From positions 1 to 15,639 of the forward strand of contig JASMDC010000062.1 in the NCBI GenBank assembly GCA_030753015.1: a stretch of DNA of 15,639 nucleotides, written 5' to 3'. The position numbers and the translations under genes are program-made. Shown here one piece after another: positions 1 through 15,639 of the stretch (the first letter of the stretch is position 1; each line of letters starts with the position of its first letter). The DNA is from Candidatus Undinarchaeales archaeon (GTDB taxonomy: Archaea; SpSt-1190; JASMDC01). A model generated the notes under the pieces. It was not told the DNA's origin, ran no database searches, and was given only the letters and a program-made list of their open reading frames with translations.

Positions 1-42
1 CTCGCGGCCGTTGATGATCTTGATACGGGTGTACTTCTTCAT
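1..42 (-). CDS. 5' end of a gene running off the window (MKKYTRIKIINGRE...), product unknown
   Basis: ATG at 42-40 and the frame is open to the edge. TTTATAAA (65-72) lies about 23-30 nt upstream, consistent with a leaderless archaeal transcript. Basic R-x-K-x-I-N-G N-termini occur in some archaeal Fic proteins and transposases, but 14 aa is too little to assign. Confidence 0.6.
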   Translation of the reverse strand, partial: MKKYTRIKIINGRE

Positions 43-64
43 GAGCCTATTTAGGCGCATTAAT

Positions 65-72
65 TTTATAAA
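65..72 (-). promoter_or_regulatory. Archaeal TATA box for the gene starting at 42
   Basis: TTTATAAA in an AT-rich patch at the canonical distance from the ATG, within otherwise GC-rich DNA. Confidence 0.6.
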
Positions 73-248
73 CCTATGGCTGGAAAACGCGGTAATGGGC
101 GGTATCAGCCAAGAATCACGTGCCTAATTAGTGGGAGCTCAGGTAAGAAGAACACCCGGACACTCCAGGACCATGGATGTCGCCTCACTACCGACATGCG
201 GGGAAAAAGCGAAGTGACCATTACATGAAGACGAAGATGGGCATGTCC

Positions 249-364
249 GTGTAACTAGTGCATATGCGAACCCTGGATTCGCATAATCTCCCGCTGGGGG
301 AGGATATGCGATATATGGCGCATATTCCTCACTTTGTCAGCTATGTATCCATCCCCCTCGCATA
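249..364 (-). repeat. Three spaced TATGCG-N(8-11)-CGCATA palindromes ending in a GTTACAC core; candidate recombinase (att-like) site
   Basis: Units at 263-285 (TATGCGAA-N7-TTCGCATA), 305-324 (TATGCG-N8-CGCATA) and 342-364 (TATGTA-N11-CGCATA), with right ends 39-40 bp apart. The minus strand then reads TGCACTA-GTTACAC (255-249). The repeats are directly visible; the function is inferred. Confidence 0.55.
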
Positions 365-369
365 CCGCG

Positions 370-624
370 CTACCGCTTGTAGATAGTGCTCCGGTGGGCG
401 ACCGTCAGCGCGAGTATGATGAGCTTGTTCTCCTGGATGTCCAGGAGCACGCGCCAGGACCCCACCCGGAGCCGGTAGCCGGGATCGCCCACGAGCTTGG
501 TGACATGGGCATACGGTCGGATGCGCACCCGCTCCAGTGCGCCCAGGATGCGCACCCGGACCTGTTTGTCCAGCTTGCGCAACTGTCGCAGGGCAATGTC
601 GGTGAACAGGAGCTCGTACACCAT
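370..624 (-). CDS. relE: Type II toxin, RelE/ParE family mRNA interferase
   Basis: 84 aa and basic. It has the YELLFT..A.RQLRKL N-terminus, the YRLRVGSWRV motif and the C-terminal HRSTIY typical of RelE, and lies directly after an antitoxin-like gene. Confidence 0.92.
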   Translation of the reverse strand: MVYELLFTDIALRQLRKLDKQVRVRILGALERVRIRPYAHVTKLVGDPGYRLRVGSWRVLLDIQENKLIILALTVAHRSTIYKR

Positions 625-630
625 GATCGT

Positions 631-849
631 TCAGCGCCCGAGCTCCCGCTTGACCTCTGCCAGGGTATGCACCTTTCCTGCCTTCCCCTCTGCACGGGCC
701 GCGGTCAGCTCGCGCCTGGTCTCCTCGTTCAGCTCGCGAGTGTCCTCGATAATGTCCCAGATTACCTCTTCGTACGTCTCGCGAGCGAAGAGCTTGCGCG
801 AAAGCAGCTCCTGCTGGAGGGAGTCGCTGATCTGGATGGTGGTCGCCAT
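631..849 (-). CDS. Antitoxin, archaeal RelB-like (ribbon-helix-helix type N-terminus)
   Basis: 72 aa from ATG 849: MATTIQISD (beta-ribbon), ETYEEVI, C-terminal GKVHTLAEVKRELG. It ends 6 nt before the toxin start. The ORF-track start at 963 overlaps the integrase and runs through the promoter, so it is unlikely. Confidence 0.85.
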   Translation of the reverse strand: MATTIQISDSLQQELLSRKLFARETYEEVIWDIIEDTRELNEETRRELTAARAEGKAGKVHTLAEVKRELGR

Positions 850-854
850 CAATG

Positions 855-893
855 AATATAGTGGCTTATAGTATACATATAGTTTGCTATATT
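855..893 (-). promoter_or_regulatory. TA promoter/operator region
   Basis: AT-rich island with TATAGT at 857, 867 and 878 and an outer inverted pair AATATAG (855-861)/CTATATT (887-893), immediately upstream of the antitoxin ATG. Confidence 0.55.
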
Positions 894-911
894 GGACGCG
901 CCCGTCCTCCG

Positions 912-1991
912 TCACGCTCCCTTCCCGCCCCCCAGAGCGTCCAGGGGGCTTCTGATACGGCACAGGTCCCGCCGGCTCACGTGGGTGTAGATCTCGGTGG
1001 TCTTGCTGTTCTTGTGACCCAGAAGCTCCTGGATGTAGCGAAGGTCCGTGCCGTTCTCCAGCAGGTGCGTGGCGAAGCTGTGACGCAGGGAATGTACCGA
1101 GACGTCCTTGGTGATGCCCGCTGCTCGCACTGCCCGCGAGAACACCTTCTGGACGCTGCGCTCGTGCAGGTGCCCCTTACGGCCGCCGGGGAAGAGCCAT
1201 GAGGTCACGGGCGTTCCCTCGAGATACGCATCAAGGTGCGAAAGGGCCAGATCGGGAAGGAGCGTGTACCGGTCCTTGCGCCCCTTTCCGCTACGGACGC
1301 GTACCAGCATCCGCTCCCGGTCGATATCCCCGACCTTCAGCCGGACGACCTAGCCGACACGCACCCCGGCACCATAGGTGAGCATGAGGATCGCCCGGTG
1401 CTTGGGATAAGAGACCATCCCGAGGATACGTGACACCTCCCCGCAGCTCAGCACAACAGGTAGCCGCCGGTCCTTCCGCGGCCGCTTCAGCGTGTAAACG
1501 AACCGACGTCCGAGCACACGGCCGTACATGAACTTGATGGCGCTCATCGCACTGTTGAGGGTCGAGGCAGAGCATCTTCGCCCTTCTGCCAGGTACGCCA
1601 GATACCGGCTGACGTCCTCGTTGTCGACGTCCTCTGGACGCTTTCCGACCATCTCTAGCAGCCTTTCATTGAACCGCACGTACGCCTTCACGGTCCGGCG
1701 ACTGTACTTCCTGGTCACCAGCTCGCGTCGCATTCGCTCCAGCGGGCCCACGACGCCCATGAGAGCGGGGTCCACCTCGACGGCAAGGTCCGCGAAGAGC
1801 TGCTGCAGGCACTCCACCATGCCCGCTTCCCTGGGGACGGTCCAGACCTTCTCGTCCTGATGCCATCTCCTGCCCGTGACGGTCCGGATACGCTCGATGA
1901 GGTCCCTGTCATAGGGGAGCGCCAGCGATATACGGTCATCGTCGGTCTTCTGGAGCCTGATACGGATCGCCATCTCGTTCACTCTGACCAT
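912..1991 (-). pseudogene. Tyrosine recombinase (integron-integrase-like/XerD-like) with one in-frame amber stop at 1350-1352
   Basis: ORFs 1350..1991 and 912..1310 are the same frame, joined as ...YGAGVRVG*VVRLKVGDIDRERMLVRVRSGKGRKDR.... It has a SAM-like domain (YSRRTVKAY, SASTLNSAMSAIKF), LPVVLS, and catalytic R, K, HSLRH, LGH and IYTHV all present. The start may be 1991 or 1973. Confidence 0.9.
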
Positions 1992-2392
1992 GGTATGTAC
2001 GGCCTTGTAGAAAAAGTACAGTTACACCCTGAAGGGGGATATCGAGCACACTCGATCCCCAGAGACGTGTCGCGTTCCCGTCATCTGCGGAGCGATACCT
2101 GACGCGGAGTGTCGTCCTTCTCCCGCGTGCTGGTCCGATGACGAGGTTCGTTAGAAAGCGCTCTGCCGGAGGGAAGACGACATGGCCCCCGCGGTATTCT
2201 CCGATTACTTGTATTGGGTCCGATAACGCGTCCATCGTTCGTCTTCGGATATCGCCCCTGAAGCCATAGGATAGGCGAATTGGACGTCATGTGCAGATGG
2301 TCGGATATACGATATCAGGTGAAATGAACGAAGTTAATACTAGGTCGAATAGGATCAAGGCAGTACCTATGGGGGTGTCACTCTCCAGTGAG

Positions 2393-2434
2393 GTGGCAGG
2401 GCATCACGGGGCCCTCGTGATGCCATACAGCCAC
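2393..2434. repeat. GC-rich inverted repeat (hairpin)
   Basis: Perfect 9-bp stem GGCATCACG (2400-2408)/CGTGATGCC (2416-2424), extended by GTGGC (2393-2397)/GCCAC (2430-2434). Confidence 0.7.
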
Positions 2435-2453
2435 ACGCTCCGACCCAAAGGGT

Positions 2454-2476
2454 ACCTATATTAACCCTTAATAGGT
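2454..2476 (+). promoter_or_regulatory. Probable TATA region with overlapping imperfect palindrome for the gene at 2500
   Basis: ACCTATATTAA-CCC-TTAATAGGT, AT-rich, about 25-45 nt upstream of ATG 2500. Confidence 0.45.
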
Positions 2477-2499
2477 CCGCAGCAAACAGGTAATGCTAC

Positions 2500-3264
2500 A
2501 TGATCGGCGAAGTTGAGGACATCCGCATGCCCTACGAGTTCGACGTCAGCGGCGGCACGTACAGCGTGCTGGGCGCTGTTGGCGAGGCCGTGGCTGCCGA
2601 GGCCGGCCTGGAGAACAACTACGAGGGCGTAGGTACCTACGATACTGCAAGGGGATTCATCTTCCCCGTGACGGGCCCAATGAAGGAGAAGTTCAACGAG
2701 AAGGCAGTGGATATCAAGAAGACCTGCGAGGAGCAGGGCATCCACGCCAAGTTCGACTCGGACCTCATCATCGGCTACCGCCATGCGGCCTTCGATCTCG
2801 TGAAGACCGAGCGGGTGAGCAGCGAGAACACCGGTCCCTACTGGAGCCGGATCACGGAGAAGTACACCATCGATGCCGAGTACGGCAGCCTCCGCGGAAA
2901 GCTCACCGAGAACATCGACGGTCTCGAGGACCTGAGCGGTGTGAAGGCCGTCGTGGACAGCGCTGGCGCTGCGGCCGTTGCCTACGAGCTGCTCGACTCC
3001 TTCGACGGTTACGTCGACCGCCACTCGAACACAGTCGAGGTCTTCGGCCTGGACAGTGACGAGCTATATGGCGAGATCCGAGGGAAGCTCGAAGAGGACG
3101 TGAGCTCGCGTCAGGAGAAGATCGACAACGACTTCCTCGGCAAGGTCCCCCTGTTCGGCAAGTGGTACAAAGGTCGCCAGGAGACCAAGCTCGAAGATAT
3201 GCGCCTGAACAAGGAGCGTCAGATCAACGTCGTCGAGGCCATCTTCGGCCCCCGTGACGAGTGA
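2500..3264 (+). CDS. Hypothetical acidic protein, 254 aa
   Basis: Strong G/C third-position bias, own AT-rich upstream region and a downstream hairpin. No family recognised. Confidence 0.85.
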   Translation: MIGEVEDIRMPYEFDVSGGTYSVLGAVGEAVAAEAGLENNYEGVGTYDTARGFIFPVTGPMKEKFNEKAVDIKKTCEEQGIHAKFDSDLIIGYRHAAFDLVKTERVSSENTGPYWSRITEKYTIDAEYGSLRGKLTENIDGLEDLSGVKAVVDSAGAAAVAYELLDSFDGYVDRHSNTVEVFGLDSDELYGEIRGKLEEDVSSRQEKIDNDFLGKVPLFGKWYKGRQETKLEDMRLNKERQINVVEAIFGPRDE

Positions 3265-3280
3265 GCGAACCACAGATGAC

Positions 3281-3317
3281 CGGGGCGGTCCTTGCGGCCG
3301 CCCTGCACTTCCTTTTC
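3281..3317 (+). terminator. Hairpin plus pyrimidine tract between convergent genes
   Basis: GGGCGGTC (3283-3290)/GGCCGCCC (3296-3303) stem with one G-U pair, followed by CACTTCCTTTTC. Confidence 0.5.
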
Positions 3318-3343
3318 AAGGGCATCGACGCCCGTTCCCGGAT

Positions 3344-6067
3344 CTAGCACACGATGGCGGTGTCGGACCACGCACCGGGGTTCCCTTGGACCGTGATATA
3401 GATACGGTCACGGACGGTCACACCCTCGGACGTCACGGACACCTCGACCGGCACGGGATCACCGGGACGGGGCGCGTCAGGGCAAAGCTTCACACGTGAC
3501 AGGTGGAGCCGCACACCTGAGGGCGTCGACATGATGTACGCCAGCGACGACGTCACGTCCCGCTCGCCGATGCTCACCTTGAAGTCCTCCTCCCTCACCA
3601 GATCGGCCCCCTCCAGGTCGACATGGATGTCCATGTTGAACCCGATGCCCAGGAGGATGGAATAGAGCGGATTGTCACCGGTGCCCGGCCTGATGCGGCT
3701 CATCTCCAACGACAGCGGCAGGTGCTCGACGACCGAGAGGGGGCTAGACGCAGATGCTTTGCGGCCGAGCGAGTCGATCTTGAGGGTGAGCTTGTCCGCG
3801 GCGACCTTGCCTTCGAGCGTGCCCACCACGCGCCACCGCTTGCTCGCTGGCTCGAACTGGGCGGATAGGGAGCGCGCCTTGACGGCACCGAAACTGAGGA
3901 TGAAGTCCTCGGTGGCGAGGTCCGTGACAGGCTCTCCCTCGTCGTCCCGCACTTCAGCGAGCACCCGGACAGCGGTACCGATGCGCAGGCTCTCCAGGCT
4001 CACCATCTGTGGCGTGAGCACGTTAATGGACACGTTCAAGCCACGTTCGTCGACCGGAACGTGTAGCGCGAAAGGCCGGCGGACCACGTGTACCGTATCG
4101 TTCTCGTATCTGATGATGAGGAACAGGGTTGAGTGACCGGGAGGGAGAGTGTCGGTGAACCTCGCCCAGAACTGCCAGCCCTTGTCAAGCGACATGTGCT
4201 CGAAGCCCGTCTCCTCGGCCTTGAGGGAGCCGAGCTTGGCCGTGATATTGATGTCGCGGGTGGCCATCCTTCCCAAGAACCGGTCGCCACGCTTCAGGAA
4301 ACCGGTCCAGGTGACCTTGATACCGTCCTCGAGCTCGTCAACACCGGCATGTCCCGGTGTCATCCCGTCGAGCCGGAGCACGATGCCGGCGTCCTCGCAG
4401 CCGGCGGGAGCGCACACATCGCCCGTATTGCATGGCGAGAGGGGGACGTTGTTCTCGTCAAGGCAGACGCAATTGCCGAAGCACACCTCGCCCTGGCCTA
4501 TGCAGGGGAGGGTCGTGATGCCTCGTCTGGCGCGGCAGCGGGACTGCTCGAACACGATGGTGTAGGGCGAGTCGGGTCCGCCCGTACACCCGTCCGCTGC
4601 GCACCGCTGACCGAACGAGCATACGTGGGCTGGATCCCCCCCCTCGTCGAAGCAAAGGCACACGGGGATGTCGCTCGAGGTCGGTACGCACACGTCACCC
4701 TCGGCGATGCATGCGATGGAGTCGTCCTCCACAGCGAGGCTGCCCCGCGGGCAGAGCGCTGACCTGCGTGATGCTGGTTGCCATTCGGTCACATGGATTG
4801 CCCGGGAGGCCACGGCGACCACGCCCTCGTCATCGTACACCTTCGTCCTGACAACGTAGTCCCCCGGGGGAGTGTCCGGTGTGACGGGGATGACCGTTCC
4901 GTCGAGACCGTTCACCTCCTGGCTGTCAACGCTCTCGCCCGAGGTGTCCACGAGCTCCGTGACGGTGCGCTCCTTACCGGTCGCGCCCGGTACATCTATC
5001 GACGGACGGATCTCCTCGCCGGGCCCGTAGGTCTGCTTCTCCAGGGCGAGCTCGGCATCCATGAGCCCGGTGTCCTCGAGCACGACACGTATCGAGGCCA
5101 CACCGGAGACGCGTTCGGCGAACCCGCGGAGCCGGACAACGTACTCGCCGGGCTCCCAGGACGGCTGCGTGCCGAGCATCACGGTGTCGCACGCCGCGTA
5201 CGTCACCGCGTCGACGGACACCCCGTGCCGGTCGAGGATGTGGACGGAGCATCCGGTGAGCTCTTTGGAGGACGTCACGGTGAGGTTGATCGGCTCACCC
5301 AGGGCTGCACGGTCTTCCTTGAGCCGTAGGGCAAGGTCAAGTTCGGCCGCGCGGAACCGTGTGGGGAACTTGGCAACGTAGGCTATCTTGGGCTCAAGGC
5401 GCGCGATGGTCAGGGTGTGGGTACCGGGTTGGAGCTCCGCGGGGAGGGTCAGTGTGTGGTTCGAGCATCGGTAGGTCGTCAGTTTACCCTCGCCCTCCAC
5501 CATGTCCACGTGGGCCGCACAGAGCCGGCCTCCAAGTCGAGGGAGCGGGATGGCCTCACCGAGGGTGTACTCGTTCTTGTGCAGGCTGATCCCGAGAGGT
5601 CGGCGCTCGAGGCGAGTTGTGAAGGAAGTACGATAAGGGATACCCCGCACGCTACTGAAGGATGTCGTATGGCTCGGATAGAGGATCGAGAGCGAGCGCG
5701 AGCCTGTCCGCAGGCCGTCGCAAAGGACGAACTGGAGCGGAGTGTACTCCAGCAGGAGGTCAGCTACCACTTCGTTCTCGCCGATGTCCAGCGAGCGCAC
5801 ATCCAACCGGGGGTACGACAGTACGGAGAACACCACGGCGGTGCTCTCCAATGAGGCCGTGCACTCAAGGACGCCCGAGAGGGTCGCGCAGCGTGTCCGG
5901 AGATCTGCCTCGGTGAGCCCACGGACCTGATCGGGGGATAGCGCATACCGCACTGTCGTGGTCAGCAGCCCCAGGGAGGTCGCGTCCACCTTCTCGACGA
6001 TCTCGTTGACAGCGGAACCTAGGAGCAACAGGAGGCTCAGGAGGAGGACCGCCGCCCGGCGGCTCAT
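3344..6067 (-). CDS. Large secreted beta-sandwich (Ig/macroglobulin-like) protein with central Cys-rich module; paralog of 8873..11638
   Basis: Start re-assigned to ATG 6067 (MSRRAAVLLLSLLLLLGS signal peptide; ATGA overlap with the upstream stop). Motifs LHKNEYTLGEAI and LEKQTYGPGEEI, PGEY/PGDY strands and a duplicated Cys module are visible. Confidence 0.85.
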   Translation of the reverse strand: MSRRAAVLLLSLLLLLGSAVNEIVEKVDATSLGLLTTTVRYALSPDQVRGLTEADLRTRCATLSGVLECTASLESTAVVFSVLSYPRLDVRSLDIGENEVVADLLLEYTPLQFVLCDGLRTGSRSLSILYPSHTTSFSSVRGIPYRTSFTTRLERRPLGISLHKNEYTLGEAIPLPRLGGRLCAAHVDMVEGEGKLTTYRCSNHTLTLPAELQPGTHTLTIARLEPKIAYVAKFPTRFRAAELDLALRLKEDRAALGEPINLTVTSSKELTGCSVHILDRHGVSVDAVTYAACDTVMLGTQPSWEPGEYVVRLRGFAERVSGVASIRVVLEDTGLMDAELALEKQTYGPGEEIRPSIDVPGATGKERTVTELVDTSGESVDSQEVNGLDGTVIPVTPDTPPGDYVVRTKVYDDEGVVAVASRAIHVTEWQPASRRSALCPRGSLAVEDDSIACIAEGDVCVPTSSDIPVCLCFDEGGDPAHVCSFGQRCAADGCTGGPDSPYTIVFEQSRCRARRGITTLPCIGQGEVCFGNCVCLDENNVPLSPCNTGDVCAPAGCEDAGIVLRLDGMTPGHAGVDELEDGIKVTWTGFLKRGDRFLGRMATRDINITAKLGSLKAEETGFEHMSLDKGWQFWARFTDTLPPGHSTLFLIIRYENDTVHVVRRPFALHVPVDERGLNVSINVLTPQMVSLESLRIGTAVRVLAEVRDDEGEPVTDLATEDFILSFGAVKARSLSAQFEPASKRWRVVGTLEGKVAADKLTLKIDSLGRKASASSPLSVVEHLPLSLEMSRIRPGTGDNPLYSILLGIGFNMDIHVDLEGADLVREEDFKVSIGERDVTSSLAYIMSTPSGVRLHLSRVKLCPDAPRPGDPVPVEVSVTSEGVTVRDRIYITVQGNPGAWSDTAIVC

Positions 6068-7053
6068 CCCGACTCCCTCCGGCACGCCTCCTTGAGCGTG
6101 CGGTCGAGGGTCACCCGGTTGACCGCCCCCACCCGTACCTTGGCGAGAGCGCCCTTGTCCTCGAGGTCGCTCAGGAGCCGCGAGAGCTTCGACTTGGAGA
6201 ACCCGAGGGCCCTGCACAGATCGTTCTGGTTCATGGGAGCGTCATGCTTGGCCAGCTCACAGACGACGATGCGCTCGTCCAGGGAGAAGCCGGCGAGCAC
6301 CGAGGGCCTAGCCTGGAGGTGGACGAGCAGGGCGTAGCCGAAGGCACCTGTGATGATGCCGGCAACGAGGATGGACACGCCATCAGCGGAGCTCCCGCTG
6401 TCCGGTGCAGGGGCCGGAGGCCGCTTGGCACGCACGAAGATGTCCATGGTCTCACCCTTGTCGAGAGGACCCTGGTCCCAGCGGAGGATGAGATGCTTGC
6501 CGTCGGTCTCGAGCCGGGCGGCCGGTACGACCACCGATGCCACCTGTGTGACGTTCTCTGCTATGGGAAGGACGTAACCGGGAGGGAGGTCGACCCGCGC
6601 CTTGAAGTCGGCGATGGGCCACGCGGCCTTGTAGGTGGTACGCAACTCCAGCTCGTCGCCCACGACACGCGTGAACTGTGCGGTGTCGAACCGGATCATG
6701 TACGCGGCCTGTTCGCCCGGCGGTACGGGCTCGTCGAACGCGATGATGATGATCCGCGCCCAGTTCGCCTCGCGCTCGGTGACGCTCACTGGACGTGAGC
6801 CGGTCACGGTGAGGTTCGCGATGTCCTTGCCCACGGTGAACGACACCTTCTCCAGCGGTTCTGTGCCGTTGTTCACGAAGGCGGCGTCGATACGTTCCCG
6901 ACATGTACCGTCGGCATGCACGTAGAGCGACAGCTCGTAGGTGCGATAATCGAGCGAGGGAGGCAGGCCGGCCCCGGGGATGGCTACCAGCGAAAGTGTG
7001 ATGGCGAGGATGCCCAGCGTGCGCCACGCCGCGTACCTATCCATGGGCATCAT
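6064..7053 (-). CDS. Membrane-anchored winged-HTH protein (COG2512-like): signal peptide, extracellular beta domain, TM helix, C-terminal HTH
   Basis: N-terminal hydrophobic LGILAITLSLVAI, TM VSILVAGIITGAFGYALLV, and C-terminal MNQNDLCRALGFSKSKLSRLLSDLEDKG..KVRVG..NRV. ATG 7053 overlaps the upstream TGA (ATGA); alternative starts are 7050 and 7044. Confidence 0.85.
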   Translation of the reverse strand: MMPMDRYAAWRTLGILAITLSLVAIPGAGLPPSLDYRTYELSLYVHADGTCRERIDAAFVNNGTEPLEKVSFTVGKDIANLTVTGSRPVSVTEREANWARIIIIAFDEPVPPGEQAAYMIRFDTAQFTRVVGDELELRTTYKAAWPIADFKARVDLPPGYVLPIAENVTQVASVVVPAARLETDGKHLILRWDQGPLDKGETMDIFVRAKRPPAPAPDSGSSADGVSILVAGIITGAFGYALLVHLQARPSVLAGFSLDERIVVCELAKHDAPMNQNDLCRALGFSKSKLSRLLSDLEDKGALAKVRVGAVNRVTLDRTLKEACRRESG

Positions 7054-8873
7054 CCCGTGCACTCAGAGCGGGCGCTGACGTGCTCTATCTTGCCGCCGAC
7101 CTTCTCGATGAGGAGCGGTTTCATCTCGATATCAAGTGTGGTGGATTTCTCGACATCGATGATGAGGACCCGGGCCGAGACCTTGTACTGGGGGCGGCCG
7201 AGATCGTCCTCGGACGGCACGGTGAGGACTATGTACCGCCCAGGGTTGAGCTGGGGCGTGGTGTACTTCCCATCACGGTCCACTCCCACTTTCACGATGG
7301 GTCCAAGGTCATCGTGGACCGGCTTGAACAGGATGGTGACGTACCGGGCCGGATTGCCGTCGATGTGGCCGAGCGTGTCCTCACCCATTTCCACGACCTT
7401 ACCGGTGTTGGTGCAGAAGATACGCTTCTTCATGAACACCTTCCCGGTCAGTACCGCGTAGTCCTTGAGCGAGATGGTGGTGCTGAACTGGCGGTCGATC
7501 TTCACCTTATCCACATGCTTGGAGAGCCCCACCGGATCGTTGGACACGACGATGAGGTCCTGTACCTTGCAGGGAACGCCTGCCTGTTTGAGGTGGCTGT
7601 CCATGTAGGAGTAGGAGCATGCGCCGATGTAGATGGTCCCCGCGTTGGAGTTCTTGACGGTGATGTCCACATCGCAAGCGCCTCGGCAAAGATCGTCGAC
7701 GGTGGCGGGATCCATCACGCTCTCATCGGTGGCATTGGTCTGTTCTCCGACCAGCAGCGGTTGGATATAGAACCTGAACTCCAGCGGTCGCTGGCCCTCG
7801 GCACCCTCGCCGCCGATGATGAAGGAGCTCTCGTGGATGTCCCGGAGAGTCCACCGCACCGGGAACTGGGCGGAGTACGATACGGTGTATCGGGACGGGC
7901 ACAACCGCGGCTCCGCGCGCCGGTCCATCAGCGGCATCTCGAAGGGCACGTAATAGATAACTTCCGTGCTCTCCCATGTCTTGTCCAGGTAGTCGGCGTC
8001 CTTGTTGGCGATGAAAGTGAAGTTGACGTCCCTGACGTTGAGGTCAGCCGCCCACTCGACGTACTGCTCGCCGCGGAACAGCTCCTTGACCCGCTTGAGC
8101 TCCCGGGCCACGGAGAGCTGGGTGTTCTCGCGCATGGGCGAGATGATCTGCTTGCGGTAGGCGTACACCGTCTGGCTGTCGCAGTCCACGTTGCGCGAGA
8201 TCATCCCCGGCGGTGTGGGGAGTCGCTGGTCCTGGATGATACCATTGAGCAGAGCCTTCTCCATCATACGTTCCTCTGTGTAGTTCTGGATGTAACGCTC
8301 GGCGAGGTCGCGCAGGTACTTGATGCGCAAGGGGAGCTGATTGGAGTACGTGACCGATGTGCGAGCCTCACGCTCGTCGGCTATCAGGCCGATGGGGACG
8401 GACACCTCGGTCTCCACGGCATGGTCATGGAGCTTGACCTTCGCCTTGGGGTACCCGATGGCGAACAGGTCGGTCCTGACCTGGGAGCGGAGGACGTCGA
8501 GCTTTTTACCGAGCCGACGTTCGATCTCGTCGACGAGCATCTCCTCCATCACTTTGGCCGTGGGGATGCTCACGATGCGCCCGCGGTAGTACCAGTGGGG
8601 GATGCCCAGGTGGTTGAGCAACGGTGCGTTCTCTGCTGTATATCCGCCATGACGGCCCATCTCGTCCACTGACTCGTAGATCGAATCGATGAAGAGCGCC
8701 TCTACCGAGCTCTCGAGCTTCACCAGCTCGTCCTTGACCTCGACGGACTCGATCTCCTGGATGTTGAGCTCGCGTGTCTGCTGCTCTCCCGAGAGGATGA
8801 GGTAGAGTACGGCGATGACGACGATGGCGATGGCCGCCAGTGCCATGAGGTTCATCTGACCGCGTCGCGCCAT
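7050..8873 (-). CDS. Large type IV pilin-like protein with class III signal peptide, 607 aa
   Basis: MARRG/Q followed by a long hydrophobic helix (MALAAIAIVVIAVLYLIL), then an MGRHGGY..IPHWYY..IPT segment. The C-terminal DRDGKY..PGRY resembles a carboxypeptidase-regulatory-like beta sandwich. TGATG overlap with the upstream gene. Confidence 0.75.
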   Translation of the reverse strand: MARRGQMNLMALAAIAIVVIAVLYLILSGEQQTRELNIQEIESVEVKDELVKLESSVEALFIDSIYESVDEMGRHGGYTAENAPLLNHLGIPHWYYRGRIVSIPTAKVMEEMLVDEIERRLGKKLDVLRSQVRTDLFAIGYPKAKVKLHDHAVETEVSVPIGLIADEREARTSVTYSNQLPLRIKYLRDLAERYIQNYTEERMMEKALLNGIIQDQRLPTPPGMISRNVDCDSQTVYAYRKQIISPMRENTQLSVARELKRVKELFRGEQYVEWAADLNVRDVNFTFIANKDADYLDKTWESTEVIYYVPFEMPLMDRRAEPRLCPSRYTVSYSAQFPVRWTLRDIHESSFIIGGEGAEGQRPLEFRFYIQPLLVGEQTNATDESVMDPATVDDLCRGACDVDITVKNSNAGTIYIGACSYSYMDSHLKQAGVPCKVQDLIVVSNDPVGLSKHVDKVKIDRQFSTTISLKDYAVLTGKVFMKKRIFCTNTGKVVEMGEDTLGHIDGNPARYVTILFKPVHDDLGPIVKVGVDRDGKYTTPQLNPGRYIVLTVPSEDDLGRPQYKVSARVLIIDVEKSTTLDIEMKPLLIEKVGGKIEHVSARSECTG

Positions 8874-11638
8874 CAGCAGGAACCTCCCTTCATGTTCCGC
8901 CAGTTGCCCGGATTGCCGTGGAGGCGGATGGTGGTCGTGTCCTCTGCCGTCTTACCGCCCACCTCGACACCCACGCTGACCATAAGGTCGGAGTTGGGCA
9001 TCGGCGGGTCGGGACAGAGCTTTACCTCGGAGAGGTGGATGCGGATCCCCTCTGCGGTGGAGACGAGATAGGCGATATCGTCGGAGACGTCGTGCTTGCC
9101 GATCTTGACCGAGAGGTTCTCCTTGCGCACGGACATGGCGCCCTCGATGGACGTGAATATGTCCATGTCGAAGCCCATAGTGGCGAAGAGATAGAAGAGC
9201 GGCTTGTCCTTGGTCCCCGGCGTGGTGCGGGCGATGCGGATGGCGAGCGGCACCTGGTCGACGACCTCGAACTGCTCACTTGTCCTGCCCTCGCGTCCCA
9301 GGGACGAGACGCCCAAGGTGATCGAGTCGGAGCGCTGGACCGTGGCGTTGCGGAAGTTGGCGATGATGGTCCACAGCTCGGAGGTGCGGTCGTAGGTGGT
9401 GGCCACCGAGTAGGCGATGAGCTGGCCCGTGGTCACCGAGAACGCCTCGGGCGGGAGATGTGGCAGCTCTTCCTCGTTGGCGTTCACGATCTTGGCCGTG
9501 AGCTCCACGGTGCCGCCCTTCTGGAGAGTGCCGATGCTCATGGACGCAGGTGTCACCTCGGTGAGCTTGACACCCATGTCCTTCATATCCTCGGGATGCC
9601 ACACCTCGAAAGGCTTGCGTATGACGTGGACGTCACCGCGGTAGCCAACGATGAGGAACAGCTCGTGCTCACCAGGATTGAGACTGCCGGTGAAGCGAGA
9701 CGTGACCTGCCAACCCTCCTCGGGAGAGACATAGATCATGTCGATGGACTCGGCGTCCAGGTTCCCCAGCGAGGCTTCGATGGTTATGTCGGCCCGGTCG
9801 GCGGTGACGAGCTGGTTCTCCACCTGGCCCGTGCGGTAGGAGATGCGGCCCGTGGCTACCAGGTCGAACCCGGCCTCGAGCTCGTTCACGCGGATGCTCT
9901 TGGTGTAGTCTTTATCCTCGATACCCATCTCGAGCCGGAGGTCCTGGCATCCGGAGTGGGTGCACGTCTGGCCAAGCGAACAGGACGAGACAGGCCTGCT
10001 CTCCTTGTCGAGACATACGCATGTCCCAGTGCAGATCTCGCCCAGCTCGACGCAGGAGACTGTCTCGAGCCCGCGTTTAGCCAGGCAGAGGCCGCCCTCG
10101 CGGACGACGATGTAGGCGCTCTCGACGGCCCGTTCGGTACAGCCGTCCTTCGAGCAGCGGTAGCCGAACTCGCAGGCGTCCACCAGGTCGCCCGGATCGT
10201 TGAAGCATAGGCAAGAGGGCACCGACGTGGACGACGGGATGCACACGTCACCCTCAGTGACGCAGGGCAGCTTGAACGTGTCGATGTACATGTAACCGCC
10301 GCGGCAGAGCTCAGCGCGTGGCGAGCGGACCGGGGGCCGCCACTCGTGGATCTCGATCCCGCGGGACGAGACGGCGGTGAGGTCGCCCCCGCTATACACC
10401 TTGGTACGGACGATGTAGCTGCCGTTGGTGAGCGATTCGTCGCTCTCGATCTCGGCGTACCCGCACCCGGGCGCATCGGACTCGCCGACCTTGGTGTTCT
10501 CCTCGTCGAAGAGCTCGAGATCGCAGTAGTCGCCCTGGGCCTCGGTGTACACGCCGATGGTGTCACCGGCCACGTAGCTCTCCTTGTCGGTCTTGGTCTC
10601 GGCGGGAGCGTACCCCCGACCACGGAGGTCGATCGAGAAGGACGCCTGGCCCTTGACCGAGCCAACGAAACCCTCGATGCGCACCAGATACTTGCCCGGT
10701 GTCCAGGCGGTCTGTGTGCCGAGGGGGATGGAAGTGCACTTCCGCAGGGTCATGGTGTCCACACGGATGCCATTCATGTCCAGGATCGAGACGACACATC
10801 CCTCGAGCGCGGGCTCGGAGGAGACCTCGATCATGACCTCATCACCGAGGTTCACGGATGTCACCGATGGCTTTGCCTGGATGAGCAGCTGGGGCCTGGT
10901 GAGCTTGACAGGGATGCGGGCCACCGCCACACCGGCCTTTCGCACTGCCATGACGTACAGGTCGTAGTCACCCTCGGCAACGAACGCGTCCGTTCCCAGG
11001 GAGAACGTCTCGCACCCCACGGAGCTGTCCATCAGGAGAGCACGCTCGTCCTGGGCGAGGGCGGCGACGCACAACTTCCCCTCCATGTGGGGGATGGGAA
11101 GGGCCTGGCCGACCTCAAAGGTGGTGTTCTCCATCTCCAGGGTCGTGTGCTCCGGGGTACCGGACAGCGAGAACGATGCGCCGAAGGGGCGCGCGAGCAC
11201 GTCAGTGACGATTGTCATGTGGGTTGGGTACTTGATCTTGAGCTCGCGGCGCTTGACCCAGATGCCGCTCATGAGGGAGAACTGCTTGGGCTCATAGCTC
11301 ACGAAGAGGTCCACCCTGACACGTTCGTCCCCGACCTCGAAACTCTCGACCTTGAGGTCGATGCTCTCGATCATGGAGAACGAGACGGTGCCCGAGTCCA
11401 CCATGATGGACGGGCTGCACGAGCTCACCGAGGAGAGCACCGAGCACCGGCCAGCGATGGCCGACTCCGAGAGCGTCGCTACATAGTAGGGAGGGAGCTT
11501 GTAGGCGATGGAGATGCTGGCCAGCTGGAGGTTGGAGACGTCGACCGTCTCGATAGCACTCTCCGCCTCGAGCCCGACCGCTGGAGAGAGGAGAAGTGAG
11601 ACGAATAAGACCGCTACAATGCGTGAGAGAAGCCGCAT
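8873..11638 (-). CDS. Large secreted beta-sandwich (Ig/macroglobulin-like) protein with central Cys-rich module; paralog of 3344..6067
   Basis: Signal peptide MRLLSRIVAVLFVSLLLSPAVG. ATG 11638 is preceded by GAGGAGG (TTG 11650 is an alternative start). Contains a TDKESYVAGDTI MG2-like motif and aligns by eye end to end with the 3344..6067 product. Confidence 0.88.
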   Translation of the reverse strand: MRLLSRIVAVLFVSLLLSPAVGLEAESAIETVDVSNLQLASISIAYKLPPYYVATLSESAIAGRCSVLSSVSSCSPSIMVDSGTVSFSMIESIDLKVESFEVGDERVRVDLFVSYEPKQFSLMSGIWVKRRELKIKYPTHMTIVTDVLARPFGASFSLSGTPEHTTLEMENTTFEVGQALPIPHMEGKLCVAALAQDERALLMDSSVGCETFSLGTDAFVAEGDYDLYVMAVRKAGVAVARIPVKLTRPQLLIQAKPSVTSVNLGDEVMIEVSSEPALEGCVVSILDMNGIRVDTMTLRKCTSIPLGTQTAWTPGKYLVRIEGFVGSVKGQASFSIDLRGRGYAPAETKTDKESYVAGDTIGVYTEAQGDYCDLELFDEENTKVGESDAPGCGYAEIESDESLTNGSYIVRTKVYSGGDLTAVSSRGIEIHEWRPPVRSPRAELCRGGYMYIDTFKLPCVTEGDVCIPSSTSVPSCLCFNDPGDLVDACEFGYRCSKDGCTERAVESAYIVVREGGLCLAKRGLETVSCVELGEICTGTCVCLDKESRPVSSCSLGQTCTHSGCQDLRLEMGIEDKDYTKSIRVNELEAGFDLVATGRISYRTGQVENQLVTADRADITIEASLGNLDAESIDMIYVSPEEGWQVTSRFTGSLNPGEHELFLIVGYRGDVHVIRKPFEVWHPEDMKDMGVKLTEVTPASMSIGTLQKGGTVELTAKIVNANEEELPHLPPEAFSVTTGQLIAYSVATTYDRTSELWTIIANFRNATVQRSDSITLGVSSLGREGRTSEQFEVVDQVPLAIRIARTTPGTKDKPLFYLFATMGFDMDIFTSIEGAMSVRKENLSVKIGKHDVSDDIAYLVSTAEGIRIHLSEVKLCPDPPMPNSDLMVSVGVEVGGKTAEDTTTIRLHGNPGNWRNMKGGSC

Positions 11639-11665
11639 CTTCCTCCTCAACTGGGAGGGATGTTA

Positions 11666-11684
11666 CTATTTATATGTTTATATG
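11666..11684. promoter_or_regulatory. Shared AT-rich divergent promoter, TTTATATG x2
   Basis: Tandem TTTATATG at 11669-11684 reads TTTATA on + and TATAAA on -. It lies about 30-45 nt from both flanking starts (11638 and 11716). Confidence 0.6.
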
Positions 11685-11715
11685 AAGCAGGGACCCCTAT
11701 TACAGGTGCTCACCA

Positions 11716-11964
11716 ATGTCCTCTGAGAAGATCGAGAAGCTGTGCGGCCTCATACTCGGCGACCTGGACTCCGTCCGGTTCGACGTCCATGATATCCACC
11801 TCGCCCTGAGCAACAAGGACCCCAAGAACAAGGAGGACATGGAGGACATGGAGTTCGGCATCGACATCGCCAACCGCCTCCTTAGTGAGATGGGCAAGAT
11901 CCGGGGTGGGCTAAAGCAGATGCAGGACCTCATCAAGGACGTGGGCAAGGGGCCCCAGGTCTAG
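11716..11964 (+). CDS. Small hypothetical helical/coiled-coil protein, 82 aa
   Basis: Host-like codon bias, upstream TATA, TAG followed by TAA, heptad-like hydrophobic spacing. Confidence 0.75.
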   Translation: MSSEKIEKLCGLILGDLDSVRFDVHDIHLALSNKDPKNKEDMEDMEFGIDIANRLLSEMGKIRGGLKQMQDLIKDVGKGPQV

Positions 11965-11999
11965 TAACCGCTTGGTATACGTGCACGGGGCACGACGCC

Positions 12000-14900
12000 C
12001 TAGACTACCACCGCGTCCCCTTCGACCTCTTCTCCCTCTTCTCCCTCTTCTCCCTCTTCTCGCCAGAGGTGCTCGGCCTCCTCCACTTCGCCCTCACCGA
12101 ACCCTGCCATGAGCAGGAGATTGCGTAGCCAGCGCGTCTCGATATCACCGTGTGCCCGCAGGAATAGCACGCACCACGCGACGTTGTCATCGTACTCCAC
12201 GTCCGCAGGTCGCTCGGCGTGCATGGCCTCGTGAAGGGCGTGCGACCTGAGCGCCTTGATCCGCTCCCGCTCCTTGCGTGGATCGATGACCACCAGCTCT
12301 ACCATTGTCGCCTCTGCCTCCTCCTTGACCACTTCGGCAGTGGCTACCGCAGGCCCGGGCGTCTCGACGGGGGGCCCGATCCCCTCCTTATCCTCAAGGA
12401 CGATCCGTTGCTCGGCGGTATCGACCACAGCATCGTCGACATCGATGATCAACAGCAGCCCGCGGAGCCACTCCAGGTCCACCTTCCTGTAGGTCCTAAG
12501 GAAGGACGTGCACCATGTGACCTCATCCTCCTCCTTCCTCGTCGGCTCCCGGTGCATGGCGCTATGGAGCGCTCGCGTCCTGAGGCGGCGTTCCACTTCT
12601 CCCGGATCACGGTGCGGCGCTTTCTTCTCTGGTTCGGAGGGCGGCCGGTACGGGACGGGCGGAGTGAGAGTCCCAGCGACGAAGGCCGCGGTTGCCACCG
12701 GCGCGACGGCGGGCGCGGGCATGAGCATCTGGCCGGCAAGACCGTGAGGGTAGGGTGCTGCGAGCCCGGCAGCAGCGGCGATTGCATGTCCGGGGGCAAC
12801 AAGCGGTGCGGCAGGCACCTCTTCCATCTCCGTCGGCTCCACGGGCTTGGCGATGAGCGCCGGCCGTGCGATGGGCAGCTCCTCGACCACCTCGACGGTC
12901 TCACGTCTCCGCATGGTGAAGACAGCGACCATACCGGTAGCGATGATGATTGCTAGGACCGCGCCCAGGATAAGCGATGTGGGCGTTCCAGCGGCTGCCG
13001 TCTCGACCGGTGCACAGTCCCCGTCGCTGCATGCCTTTCCATCCGGGCACCCGCAGTCGTCGCAGCATGTCCCGGTGGACTCTCCTGCGTCGCACACTCC
13101 GTCACCGCACACCGGCGCGCAGATGCAGTCGCCCGGGCATGACGAGCATTCCTCACCAGCGTCGCACGTCCCGTCGCCGCACGCGGGCACCGGTGGTCCT
13201 TCCTTCTCCTCTTCGACGATGATGACCGGCCGCTGGTACGTGGTGACATCGCTGATGTCCCTGGCCACGGTATAGGTGAAGGTTATCTCCTGCCCCGGGA
13301 GCAGGTCGACGTCCCATCCGACGACGGGATCGTCCTTGAGCACGACATCAGGAGGCGGATCGAACACGAGTTGGTCGACGCTACCGGCGACGTCCTTTGG
13401 TATTGTCTCTACGATGCGCACTCGCTGTTTCTGAGTATCGCCGCTCTTCTTGACAGTGACGCTGACGGTGGACCTGACGCCGTCGGATGTCTCCCTGACG
13501 GTGACATCGCGTCCGACGCTCACCTCGCGCGTGGCCTCCACGGAGCGCTCGACCATTGCCTTGACCTGGACCGCGGACACAGCGGAACCCGTACCTCCGC
13601 CGGACTGGGCCGCCCTTGATCTCGTGACGAGCGCGGCCACGTCCGCGACCGACTGCCTGACCTCTTCGATCTCCTTCTCTGTCGCGGCCTCGGTCGACGT
13701 GGTTGCCCCCTCGCCCGTGCTGGTCCCGGTCTCTGTTCCAGTCCCAGTGTCCGGAACAGCCTCGTGATGGAAGGATATGGTCCTTTCCTTCTCGACGGTC
13801 ACACAGCTGACTGTGAGCAGATCGCAGACTTCATCCCCGAAGCAGCCGCAGTCAAGACAGCAGTCCTCACCGTCGCTACACGTCCCGTCACCGCAGGTAG
13901 CGCAATCGTCGGTACAGGTGAGCGCCTCACCCGCATCGCACGCCCCGTCGCCGCACACGGTCGGTACCTCGCACCGCCCGAGCAGGACGTTGCACTCGCC
14001 GGTCTCGCACGCGCAATCGGCGCAGCAGTTGATCTGGTCCTCACCACTTGAGCAGATACCGTCGCCACATGCCGCGCAGTCGTCGGGGCATGATCCACCT
14101 GTCTCGTCGATACCGCACGTCCCGTCGCCGCACACGTCGACCGCCCGGCAGAGGTCAAGGTCCGCGTCGCAGGCCTCGCCCTCGGTGCAACCGCAGTCAG
14201 CACAACAGCTCTCGGTCGTCTCGTCGCCGGTGCATAGGCCGTCGCCGCATGTCGTGCAGTCGCCTGGGCATGATGTGGCGTCCTCGCCCTCGTCGCATGA
14301 GCCATCGCCGCAGGCCAACGATTGCATACACCCGGCCAATGTCGCATCACACGTCATGCCGTCCGGGCAGCCGCAGTCCATGCAGCAGGCGGCCTGGCTC
14401 TCGCCGAGAGAGCACGTCCCGTCGCCGCAGGTCGCGCAGTCATCGGGGCACGAGGCTGCGTCCTCGCCGCCATCGCAGCTCCCGTCGCCGCAGGTGGCGC
14501 AGTCGCTCGGGCATGAAGCCAGGCTCTCGTCGCCGGTGCACGCACCATCGCCGCACTGTGTGCAGTCGCCGGGACAGGACGTCACGTCCTCGTCACCGGT
14601 GCACTTGGCGTCACCGCACTCGGCACAGTCGTCCGGGCACGCGTCCACGCTCTCGCGCCCGGTGCATGCGCCGTCCCCGCACTCATGGCACTCGTCATGG
14701 GACACGACGGTGACCGGGACGGTCGTGTCGTTGTACTGCGGTCCGGACCTGGTGTCGTAGGTGCCGTTCACCGCGATCGACGCTGTCGCGTCGGTACACC
14801 GGTCCAGACCTGCGGCCGAGACGGTGAGCACGACCTCCTGGACATCGGAATAATTTCCCAGGTCAGGGTCGTAGTGGTGGAGCCGGTCCACGGGGAAGGA

Positions 14901-15639
14901 CGACGGATCGACAGTGATACCGCCATCGGCGTCAGCGGTACCGTCGAGGTAGGCGATGGCGCCCTCCAGCTGTCGGAACGTGCAAGTGAGGGTTGTCGTC
15001 CCCTCGGCACGGATCGTAACGGCCGGGCACGTCACCTCGAATGTGTCAGTGACCATCCCGCCGCCGCCACCGCCACCCCCGCCGGAAACGGCACCGCCGC
15101 CACTGGTGGACGTCGATGAGGAGCTGCTGGACGAGGACGAGCTTGAGCTGGACGAGGACGAGCTTGAGCTGGACGAGCCGCCGCACCCGCCCCACATCTC
15201 GGCGAAGTCGAAGGACTTGGTGTGCTGTGTCGAGTCGTTGACCTCGGCACTGATTGTGTTGGAGAACACGTAGTTGTCGTACCCGGTCTCGAGCGCTTCG
15301 TTGTCGTCGAGGGCGGGGTTCAGTGGCGCGTAGTACTCGCCCGTTTCGAAGAGCTCGGTGGCCACGGCCACGACCTGGGTGCCGTTGAGGACCTTCACCG
15401 AACCACCGGAATTCAGTCCCTTGCATCCCTTGAACATGAACCGTAGCGTGTGGACCAACGCGTTCTGACACAAGAGGGTGGCACCGGCCGTGCATCCGCT
15501 CCCGTTGTGCCCGAAACGCACCTCCACCTGTCCCGTGTCCGGCAACGGCGTTACTATTCCTGATGTCGTCGTCAAGTAGCCCGCTTGCGTGATGCGATAG
15601 GTGTCGTTGCCTGTTGCCGCGATGTAGGCATGTCCGTTG
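12000..15639 (-). CDS. Giant membrane-anchored surface protein with Cys-rich CGDG repeats (5' end outside the window)
   Basis: The frame stays open from the TTG at 15575 to the window edge (NGHAYIAATGNDTYRITQAGY...). It has a Ser/Gly linker, 13 CGD(G/A)xC repeats, an IVETIPK..DPVVGW..FTYTV domain, a TM helix at about 12912-12974 followed by RRR, and a Pro/Ala/Glu-rich cytoplasmic tail. Confidence 0.9.
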   Translation of the reverse strand, partial: NGHAYIAATGNDTYRITQAGYLTTTSGIVTPLPDTGQVEVRFGHNGSGCTAGATLLCQNALVHTLRFMFKGCKGLNSGGSVKVLNGTQVVAVATELFETGEYYAPLNPALDDNEALETGYDNYVFSNTISAEVNDSTQHTKSFDFAEMWGGCGGSSSSSSSSSSSSSSSSSSSSSTSTSGGGAVSGGGGGGGGGMVTDTFEVTCPAVTIRAEGTTTLTCTFRQLEGAIAYLDGTADADGGITVDPSSFPVDRLHHYDPDLGNYSDVQEVVLTVSAAGLDRCTDATASIAVNGTYDTRSGPQYNDTTVPVTVVSHDECHECGDGACTGRESVDACPDDCAECGDAKCTGDEDVTSCPGDCTQCGDGACTGDESLASCPSDCATCGDGSCDGGEDAASCPDDCATCGDGTCSLGESQAACCMDCGCPDGMTCDATLAGCMQSLACGDGSCDEGEDATSCPGDCTTCGDGLCTGDETTESCCADCGCTEGEACDADLDLCRAVDVCGDGTCGIDETGGSCPDDCAACGDGICSSGEDQINCCADCACETGECNVLLGRCEVPTVCGDGACDAGEALTCTDDCATCGDGTCSDGEDCCLDCGCFGDEVCDLLTVSCVTVEKERTISFHHEAVPDTGTGTETGTSTGEGATTSTEAATEKEIEEVRQSVADVAALVTRSRAAQSGGGTGSAVSAVQVKAMVERSVEATREVSVGRDVTVRETSDGVRSTVSVTVKKSGDTQKQRVRIVETIPKDVAGSVDQLVFDPPPDVVLKDDPVVGWDVDLLPGQEITFTYTVARDISDVTTYQRPVIIVEEEKEGPPVPACGDGTCDAGEECSSCPGDCICAPVCGDGVCDAGESTGTCCDDCGCPDGKACSDGDCAPVETAAAGTPTSLILGAVLAIIIATGMVAVFTMRRRETVEVVEELPIARPALIAKPVEPTEMEEVPAAPLVAPGHAIAAAAGLAAPYPHGLAGQMLMPAPAVAPVATAAFVAGTLTPPVPYRPPSEPEKKAPHRDPGEVERRLRTRALHSAMHREPTRKEEDEVTWCTSFLRTYRKVDLEWLRGLLLIIDVDDAVVDTAEQRIVLEDKEGIGPPVETPGPAVATAEVVKEEAEATMVELVVIDPRKERERIKALRSHALHEAMHAERPADVEYDDNVAWCVLFLRAHGDIETRWLRNLLLMAGFGEGEVEEAEHLWREEGEEGEEGEEVEGDAVVV
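12026..12061. repeat. Perfect 9-nt tandem repeat (CCTCTTCTC)x4 encoding EEG repeats
   Basis: Four exact copies read directly. Confidence 0.9.
13014..14690 (-). repeat. Coding Cys-rich repeat arrays: 11 units (13803-14690) plus 2 units (13014-13181)
   Basis: Consensus CGDGxCxxxExxxxCPxDC, or an extended CCxDCxC..C..C form. The DNA echo CCGTCGCCGCA recurs on the + strand. Confidence 0.9.
15127..15177. repeat. 21-nt tandem repeat (about 2.4 copies) encoding poly-Ser linker
   Basis: CTGGACGAGGACGAGCTTGAG at 15127 and 15148, with a partial copy at 15169. Confidence 0.85.

Follow-up and report, generated by a model that had tools for sequence, protein, structure and literature searches.

Results

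A recombinase gene, a toxin-antitoxin pair and a palindromic array in an archaeal contig

The window analysed here is the entire 15.6-kb contig C76 (GenBank JASMDC010000062.1) of a Candidatus Undinarchaeales assembly (G000; 3.85 Mb, 117 contigs, 98.9% complete), and near one of its ends it carries on the minus strand, in order, a tyrosine recombinase gene, a toxin-antitoxin (TA) pair (849-370) and a repeat array (Table 1). A sequence-only reading had proposed that these form an integron-like module in an archaeal context: either a platform with its att site downstream of a recombinase that lacks the I2-type insertion of integron integrases, or a mobile recombinase element with the TA pair as its passenger. 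The archaeal context is confirmed by genes for TATA-binding protein (TBP) on sister contigs of G000. The evidence presented below makes it reasonably probable that positions 249-2027 are the core of a decayed integron-like gene-capture platform in an archaeon. Comparisons use a sister genome of the same genus (G001), an archaeon of a different family (G017) and a genome of the genus of G017 (G041).

The two genes downstream of the recombinase gene point in the same direction as it does, as the sequence-only reading had stated, and have the layout of a type II TA pair: a small open reading frame (ORF), here of 72 aa and 62 nt from the recombinase gene, comes first, and a toxin gene of the ParE/RelE fold follows it. 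The likeness of the small ORF to known antitoxins is weak: VAPB_antitox at E 0.065, and a TTIQ...E(S/T)Y motif common to the candidate antitoxin and the DUF7557 antitoxin of a cassette on contig C23 (E 0.069). The AT-rich spacer between recombinase gene and TA pair is likely to hold the TA promoter and operator, and a TA pair of the ParE type probably stabilises the locus.

Table 1. Positions of the features discussed in the window
Feature	Position	Strand	Basis or remark
IS1634-family element end, 144 nt	1..144	-	transposase gene begins near 42 and continues on contig C48 (G000:C48:1-1700)
Putative remnant of first captured cassette, 107 nt, cut by the IS element	145..251	-	unique in genome
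Type-1 site	252..341	-	TAAC junction 252-255 (GTTA on gene strand); palindrome A 263-285; palindrome B 305-324 (extended 300-330)
ParE/RelE-superfamily toxin gene, 84 aa	370..624	-	PF05016, 3.2e-7, 31.2 bits against a cut-off of 23
Putative antitoxin gene, 72 aa	631..849	-	position 6 nt upstream of toxin gene
AT-rich spacer with three TATAGT repeats	850..911	-	direct reading of the sequence
Tyrosine recombinase pseudogene	912..1991	-	N-terminal domain of ~80 aa, SAM-like core-binding domain and catalytic domain; no IntI insertion
In-frame TAG	1350..1352	-	codon 214, at the Glu of the Arg-I motif G-x-R-x-x-E
Conserved non-coding leader	1992..2330	-	80% identical to C31:1093-1409
Block R	2248..2291	-	inside distal part of leader

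The recombinase lacks the integron-specific insertion and belongs to a separate clade

The recombinase frame comprises 359 codons, one of them an in-frame TAG. Its translation contains all the IntI-like motifs quoted in the sequence-only reading (RLPVVLS, GKGRKDR, TTEIYTHV and RIRSPLD) and matches the Pfam families Phage_int_SAM_4 (2.9e-18) and Phage_integrase (1.2e-41). In IntI the additional domain is an insertion of ~35-55 residues around patch III. Its absence here, claimed by the same reading, is borne out by a gap of just 18 residues between DRYTLLP and WLFPG, by a spacing of 65 residues between GKGxKDR and HxLRHS (vs. 107 in seven true IntIs), and by an alignment to the TIGR02249 profile that falls into two stretches and skips profile positions ~178-232. 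The recombinase scores 230.1 bits on TIGR02249, under the curated cut-off of 265 bits; the scores of six family members lie at 220-237 bits, those of four true IntIs at 428-482 bits. No match above 265 bits, and hence no canonical IntI, was found in G000, G001 or G017. The best relatives of solved structure are VchIntIA (156.5 bits, in two stretches) and the XerA proteins of PDB entries 5hxy (148.8 bits) and 4a8e (130.2 bits).

In a quick IQ-TREE run with 88 rows, recombinases with the N-terminal extension form a clade of their own (support 89) that falls outside both the IntI clade (nine rows, support 100) and a clade of short archaeal Xer-like proteins (support 96). The window protein thus groups with neither IntI nor short canonical XerA-like proteins; it lies, together with paralogues from the genus, in a clade of seven rows (support 99). 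The family also occurs in bacteria. Among the matches listed in a profile scan of genome contigs with the family alignment, relatives were at most 45% identical, and these served solely as comparators in the tree. G000 contains, in addition to the window copy, two intact tandem paralogues on contig C31 (69% and 49% identical) and, on contig C53, an internally deleted remnant that is the ortholog of the sole copy in G001. No Xer/IntI-like gene outside the family was found in G000, and one Xer-like gene each was found in G001 and G017.

The N-terminal domain, modelled at pLDDT 78, had no Foldseek match in the PDB at E<=0.001; weak rows included the XPB damage-recognition domain and, at rank 11, the SMARCAL1 HARP domain, and the Pfam HARP family matched three relatives, but not the window recombinase, at sub-cut-off scores.

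The recombinase gene of the window is a pseudogene

The in-frame TAG replaces a residue that is Glu in 20/20 aligned relatives. The codon is covered by contigs of four sequencing runs from four independent studies, with no differences among them, and 15 recorded contigs carry the 213-aa N-terminal ORF. Read-through of TAG as pyrrolysine was considered and rejected, there being no PylS match in the 98.9%-complete genome. Because the stop codon lies at an invariant Glu, is unchanged in the runs of four studies and is not accompanied by PylS, we conclude that the window recombinase is a fixed pseudogene. Any activity at the window locus would need the two intact paralogues of C31 in trans.

Decay of family genes seems common: many family matches at metagenome loci L107-L178 are C-terminal pieces alone (for example, residues 264-358), and a relative in another genome (G049:C10), 3' of which no motif cluster was found, appears frameshifted.

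Type-1 (attI-like) sites lie between conserved and variable DNA

The repeat array, here termed a type-1 site, ends on the gene strand with ...CACTAGTTA, in agreement with the earlier description of an array ending in GTT. It holds four ATAT[G/C]CG half-sites, and another half-site lies at 358-365; the form of the half-site in type-1 sites is ATATGCGA. The palindromic arrangement TATGCG-N(6-13)-CGCATA occurs twice in the array, at palindromes A and B, vs. 0.01 expected, and the array folds as two short DNA hairpins with z-scores of -3.7 and -3.0. All five matches to ATATNCGA in the 15.6-kb window, where 0.78 were expected, flank the module.

The site recurs in the genome. The exact 13-mer at 253-265 has four copies in G000, vs. 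~0.1 expected, and a junction 17-mer (AACTnnTnnATAT[GC]CGA) has five, on contigs C76 (the window), C11, C44, C53 and C79. The window site is 86% identical to C11:65199-65288, and seven type-1 copies, two of them from G001, are collinear over ~90 nt with 25 invariant columns, each with several ATAT[C/G]CGA half-sites in both orientations. The copies have a constant polarity, with resident genes on one side of TAAC and foreign or low-GC DNA on the other side. The resident side holds the ParE-type TA pair and recombinase gene in the window, a MazF-type TA pair and the recombinase remnant on C53, a permease gene on C11 and trpA on C79; the foreign side holds IS1634 in the window and on C44, an RHH-ParE pair on C11, a Phd-ParE pair and a 4.3-kb low-GC island on C53, and VapBC on C79.

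Comparison of loci in relatives, which the sequence-only reading had proposed as a check, places the change from conserved to variable DNA at the TAAC/GTTA end. The orthologous permease locus of G001 retains the site together with the permease gene (85-88% identity), and its other flank holds an unrelated gene that is absent from G000. On contig C14, the sole family member of G001 is followed by a DUF7557-MazF pair, another TA pair and then a type-1 site, with the contig end falling exactly at ...GAGTTA. In G017, whose recombinase shows 57% identity, the 90 nt past the stop codon are taken up by a site that has the same half-sites and, at its distal end, TAAC. Among 28 full-length metagenome relatives, the 300 nt downstream of the gene contain five exact half-sites at L099 and two at L100, against a background of 0.08. 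A conserved site downstream of homologs, another expectation of that reading, is therefore present at C53/G001:C14, G017, L099 and L100. Thirteen of the 28 metagenome contigs end less than 300 nt past the recombinase stop codon and none ends that near upstream; where DNA is available, housekeeping genes lie upstream and TA, restriction-modification (R-M) or transposase genes lie downstream. A conserved, GTTA-ended site is thus found beside four recombinase loci with variable DNA beyond it, and one junction at TAAC, described below, is on record. We conclude from these comparisons that type-1 sites appear to sit where conserved DNA gives way to variable DNA.

Genomes of other families carry counterparts of the type-1-like and attC-like sites of G017 (G042:C19:20974-21042, G057:C187:598-660 and G049:C12:71870-71923). 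At 82-85% DNA identity, these are more similar than the housekeeping genes next to them (65-74%). The G042 site has no recombinase gene closer than 4 kb.

Type-2 (attC-like) repeats separate single genes and TA pairs

Tracing of a repeat near the G001 site revealed a second family of repeats, type 2, with units of ~150 nt. A type-2 profile has 28 nhmmer matches at E<1e-3 on nine contigs of G000. The units start with ..ATAAC|GG and finish with TGTTA.., and the DNA outside these ends is unrelated and AT-rich. Type-2 repeats have a common branched fold with strong covariation: 91% of cells are paired, vs. 76% in shuffles, and double changes number 69, vs. 21.5, a count reached by 0/500 shuffles. 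Slid controls pair at 29-45%. No Rfam family matched the repeats, which by DNA similarity are genus-specific, occurring in 2/41 genomes.

A G-T (G-U) pair at columns 108/176 of alignment A3 is invariant in 22/22 type-2 copies, and the same strand tolerates additional G-T pairs. Since G-T pairs are kept on one strand, the fold is strand-specific, the strand being the one antisense to the C53 recombinase gene.

Our own hidden Markov model and covariation tests identify arrays of attC-like repeats on C53, C82 and C87. The C53 array comprises five full copies and a partial one, which lie in the same orientation at distances of 460-890 nt, and the intervals hold one gene or one TA pair each: a cupin gene, a gene of unknown function, a TBP paralogue, a PKD-protein gene and a Phd-ParE pair. 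This array lies directly beyond a type-1 site with its TAAC junction at C53:12706, and that site itself follows the MazF-type TA pair and the recombinase remnant. On G001:C17 a type-2 repeat is followed by a single gene, a type-1 site and the permease gene; in G017 the order is recombinase gene, type-1 site, genes for a methylase and a CfrBI-type endonuclease, two more ORFs and an 80-nt hairpin that begins with TTAACGG and finishes with TGTTAGGC.

Two TBP paralogues are encoded in such surroundings. The one on C53 (G000:C53:9702-10286; PF00352, 1.6e-53) lies within a cassette bounded by type-2 repeats, and the one on C44 (G000:C44:492-968; 4.3e-46) lies beside IS1634 near a type-1 site; a basal transcription factor thus appears as mobile cargo.

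A natural junction between type-1 and type-2 sequences

Beyond the type-1 site the window continues for 107 nt and then enters an IS1634-family element. Window positions 1-77 overlap contig C48 by a 77-mer, the C48 ORF scores 274.6 bits on the NF033559 IS1634 transposase profile (cut-off 100), and C90:1-144 is 98.6% identical to the IS end and diverges after it. Because the assembly graph joins this end to two flanks, C76 and C90, and run X10 also has it joined to the C90-type flank, several copies of IS1634 are probable.

One contig of run X13, which stems from another study, follows the window as far as the C of TAAC (position 255); its next 30 letters are those with which the type-2 repeat at G000:C26:428-282 begins. 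The longest k-mer common to the two joined regions is 8 nt, and for that reason an assembly chimera is unlikely. The junction implies that the 107-nt stub that stands behind an attI-like site here stands behind an attC-like site in another population, and movement of a cassette at the GTT core would produce exactly this arrangement.

According to the hypothesis that the window and its relatives represent a gene-capture platform, dimers of the recombinase would bind the half-sites of the type-1 site, strand exchange would occur at the GTTA end between the type-1 site and the ~150-nt type-2 sites on gene cassettes, and cassettes would as a result stack up beyond the type-1 site, with the recombinase clade distinct from IntI and short XerA-like proteins serving as capture enzyme. 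Catalysis by this family, the exact point of crossover and the role of the TA pair are what we infer from sequence comparison. Among the two possibilities left by the sequence-only reading, the first, an integron-like platform in which the recombinase lacks I2 and the att site lies downstream of it, is supported by the conserved site, the variable DNA beyond it, the C53 arrays and the tree.

The leader and the remainder of the window

A leader of ~340 nt upstream of the recombinase gene had gone unmentioned in the sequence-only reading, as had the IS1634 end at 1-144 and the status of the TAG as a genuine, fixed stop. Its counterpart on C31 sits between the two tandem recombinase paralogues, and its distal part (2245-2312) holds three more ATATNCGA half-sites. 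At the DNA level the leader (80% identity) is more conserved between the window and C31 loci than are the genes at the protein level (69%). A variant leader, with 1983-2109 replaced by 130 other letters, occurs in run X10. A 28-nt match to the leader at G001:C19 lies within coding sequence and was taken as chance, and the inverted pair GTGTAAC (249-255)/GTTACAC (2021-2027) was discounted: by our own estimate 7-bp pairs are expected many times in 2 kb, and only GTTAC is kept in the C31 leader.

A 45-nt stretch at 2367-2411 recurs at G000:C78:11351-11398 (92% identity), and runs X10, X12 and X13 have it in contigs that show no other relation to the window; it is overlapped by a 24-nt inverted repeat (2388-2411/2413-2436). 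Positions 3344-15575 encode very large minus-strand ORFs (957, 607, 925 and 1191 aa), none with a Pfam family above cut-off, and a 332-aa protein with a C-terminal winged-helix DUF7343 domain. No Rfam family matched positions 1-3500 at E<=1, and PADLOC returned no match among the eight window proteins.

Alternative explanations

The explanation that survives best after that of a capture platform, though we regard it as unlikely, is that the recombinase gene and TA pair constitute a small mobile or integrative element, with the arrays at 252-341 (block L) and 2245-2312 as attL and attR and with C11 as the empty or excised state. It would account for the placement of every ATATNCGA match at the flanks of the module, for the fact that block L and block R, 1906 nt apart in the window, are adjacent on C11 (G000:C11:65199-65370), for the recombinase-bearing module of G017, which is an indel relative to G041, and for the multi-copy and, in metagenomes, often fragmentary state of the family. 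It fits poorly with the two junctions, which have no common core or direct repeat, with the 38 unrelated nt between the blocks on C11, and with the orthologous site of the sister genome, which keeps block L without block R. Moreover, the recombinase gene and MazF-type TA pair are orthologous and of host-like GC in both species, with different DNA past the site, and the type-1 site of G017 is internal to the indel rather than at its ends. The C11 interval, between the permease gene and the RHH-ParE pair, could be the scar of a lost recombinase-TA module; a clean excision scar was rejected, as no common core was found. The mobile-element alternative of the sequence-only reading thus draws support from the absence of the G017 module in G041, but the capture platform is the better supported of the two.

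Less likely still, the gene could encode a common genomic-island integrase at an island edge, in which case the TA, R-M and IS genes would have arrived as one element and the repeats would be unrelated. The metagenome loci have the appearance of such an edge, with co-oriented housekeeping genes upstream and MNT/HepT, MmeI-like methylase and DDE transposase genes downstream, and G017 carries R-M cargo. Against this, no tRNA or other usual target was found, six structured repeats, co-oriented and at regular spacing, divide the C53 island, with one gene to each repeat, the content of the sister genomes differs cassette by cassette, and the X13 junction falls exactly at TAAC.

The recombinase could instead be the housekeeping XerA of the lineage, and the array a dif-like site for chromosome-dimer resolution, which we consider improbable. 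The recombinase passes the NF040815 XerA_Arch cut-off of 220 bits marginally, at 222.7 bits (relatives, 222-250), the scarcity of other Xer-like genes in G000, G001 and G017 leaves few other candidates, and palindrome B is dif-like, with two arms of ~12 bp and a 6-bp spacer. A dif site should be single, whereas at least five type-1 sites occur in the genome; G000 has four copies or fragments of the gene (two intact, one with a nonsense codon and one deleted); and the G017 copy is absent from G041 at the syntenic place. Together with the occurrence of the family in bacteria and with a clade separate from short XerA-like proteins, these observations run counter to a grouping with housekeeping XerA, which the sequence-only reading had named as grounds for abandoning its proposal.

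Finally, that the palindromes are transcription signals unrelated to recombination (a terminator of the TA pair or an operator of the next gene) is very improbable: their hairpins do fold better than shuffled sequence and the array does lie just 3' of the toxin gene, but on C11 this array is found upstream of another TA pair and on C79 beside trpA, it occurs at synteny breakpoints and contig ends, and its half-site motif recurs beside related recombinases in distant genomes.

The reading of the locus as a decayed capture platform has evidence against it as well. In the window itself the recombinase is a pseudogene, the array side consists of one TA pair and 107 nt before the IS1634 cut, and no type-2 repeat is found, so that the window lacks the two or more attC sites, under 4 kb from one another, that are expected of an integron; all the cassette evidence comes from outside the window. 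Only two of the five type-1 sites of G000 adjoin a recombinase gene, clusters of the exact motif occur downstream in just 2/28 full-length metagenome relatives (the other 26 have zero or one), and the C11 array sits 38 nt from a 44-nt block resembling window positions 2248-2291, which in the window lie upstream of the recombinase gene. Cassette genes point both ways, unlike those of most integrons. The X13 junction is a single low-depth contig, and catalysis is linked to these sites by association only. The 5.2-kb module of G017, recombinase gene included, is absent between the same two housekeeping genes in G041, and the platform itself may therefore move. No direct repeats were detected downstream in six of seven other loci (one weak pair was), in a test that is insensitive and, since the same settings recovered just fragments of known arrays, uninformative.

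Discussion

Comparison with known systems

Ghaly et al. (2022; PMC9668308) describe archaeal integrons in which attI directly follows intI, and in their account IntI is undetectable in most archaeal arrays. The system described here resembles the integrons of that account in having a recombinase gene beside a primary site that ends in GTT, and small cassettes in rows, with TA and R-M cargo, separated by structured imperfect palindromes of the form AAC...GTT. Unlike integrons, it has a recombinase without the IntI-specific domain, under the TIGR02249 cut-off and with an extra N-terminal domain; a TA pair between recombinase gene and site; an attI-like site of at least four half-sites that form two palindromes; and attC-like repeats that are branched and ~150 nt long, with genes between them facing both ways. 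As judged from sequence, the platform would work like an integron yet fails the tests that define IntI, namely the insertion, the TIGR02249 score and the placement in the IntI clade.

The closest published case is rAID-1 (Ross et al., 2019; bioRxiv 10.1101/471110), a set of Bacteroidales clusters in which a 5' XerD-like recombinase gene precedes co-oriented accessory genes of low GC and the intergenic repeats are reminiscent of integrons. Its definition includes immunity-gene cargo and a recombinase >44% identical to that of B. fragilis. The window shares with rAID-1 the 5' XerD-like recombinase gene with at least two co-directional downstream genes. It differs in that the downstream GC is not <=41% (the GC of 501-1000 is 0.61, and the first downstream genes are host-like), in that the host is archaeal, and in the cargo of TA, R-M, TBP and cupin genes.

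An 'integron-like' subgroup of simple tyrosine recombinases in which the insertion is not fully conserved was described by Smyshlyaev et al. (2021; PMC8138268), and the sections of that paper available to us give no genetic context or sites for such members. Archaeal XerA, according to Cortez et al. (2010; PMC2958812), is single-copy and lies apart from dif, which is unique. The present family is like XerA/dif, so described, in its protein, as the scores against 5hxy and 4a8e indicate, and in its palindromic binding sites; it is unlike XerA/dif in its several copies, its pseudogenes and its several sites at synteny breakpoints. A literature search, from which supplements were excluded, found no description of insertion-less recombinases at the head of archaeal cassette arrays. 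The present locus adds an archaeal case, a defined family of attI-like sites and a natural junction between attI-like and attC-like sites.

Implications

Integrons are defined, and searched for, by an integrase domain that is absent from the window recombinase. We advance as a tentative hypothesis, and one that we hold more doubtful than the capture platform itself, that N-terminally extended, Xer-like recombinases without the insertion may be the working integrases of a separate and widespread class of integrons that reaches into Archaea, with multi-half-site attI sites and with attC-like sites that are long and branched and fold from the antisense strand relative to the recombinase gene. If true, such a class would explain many archaeal attC clusters that lack IntI, and it would bear on the origin of integrons from Xer/dif systems. 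The system can be tested, as G000 offers two intact C31 genes, attI-like and attC-like sites and a natural junction. If the family does drive cassette capture, integron-type capture would be older or more varied than thought and would operate in Archaea with a site grammar of its own, and many archaeal and bacterial clusters now filed as integrase-less may have an integrase.

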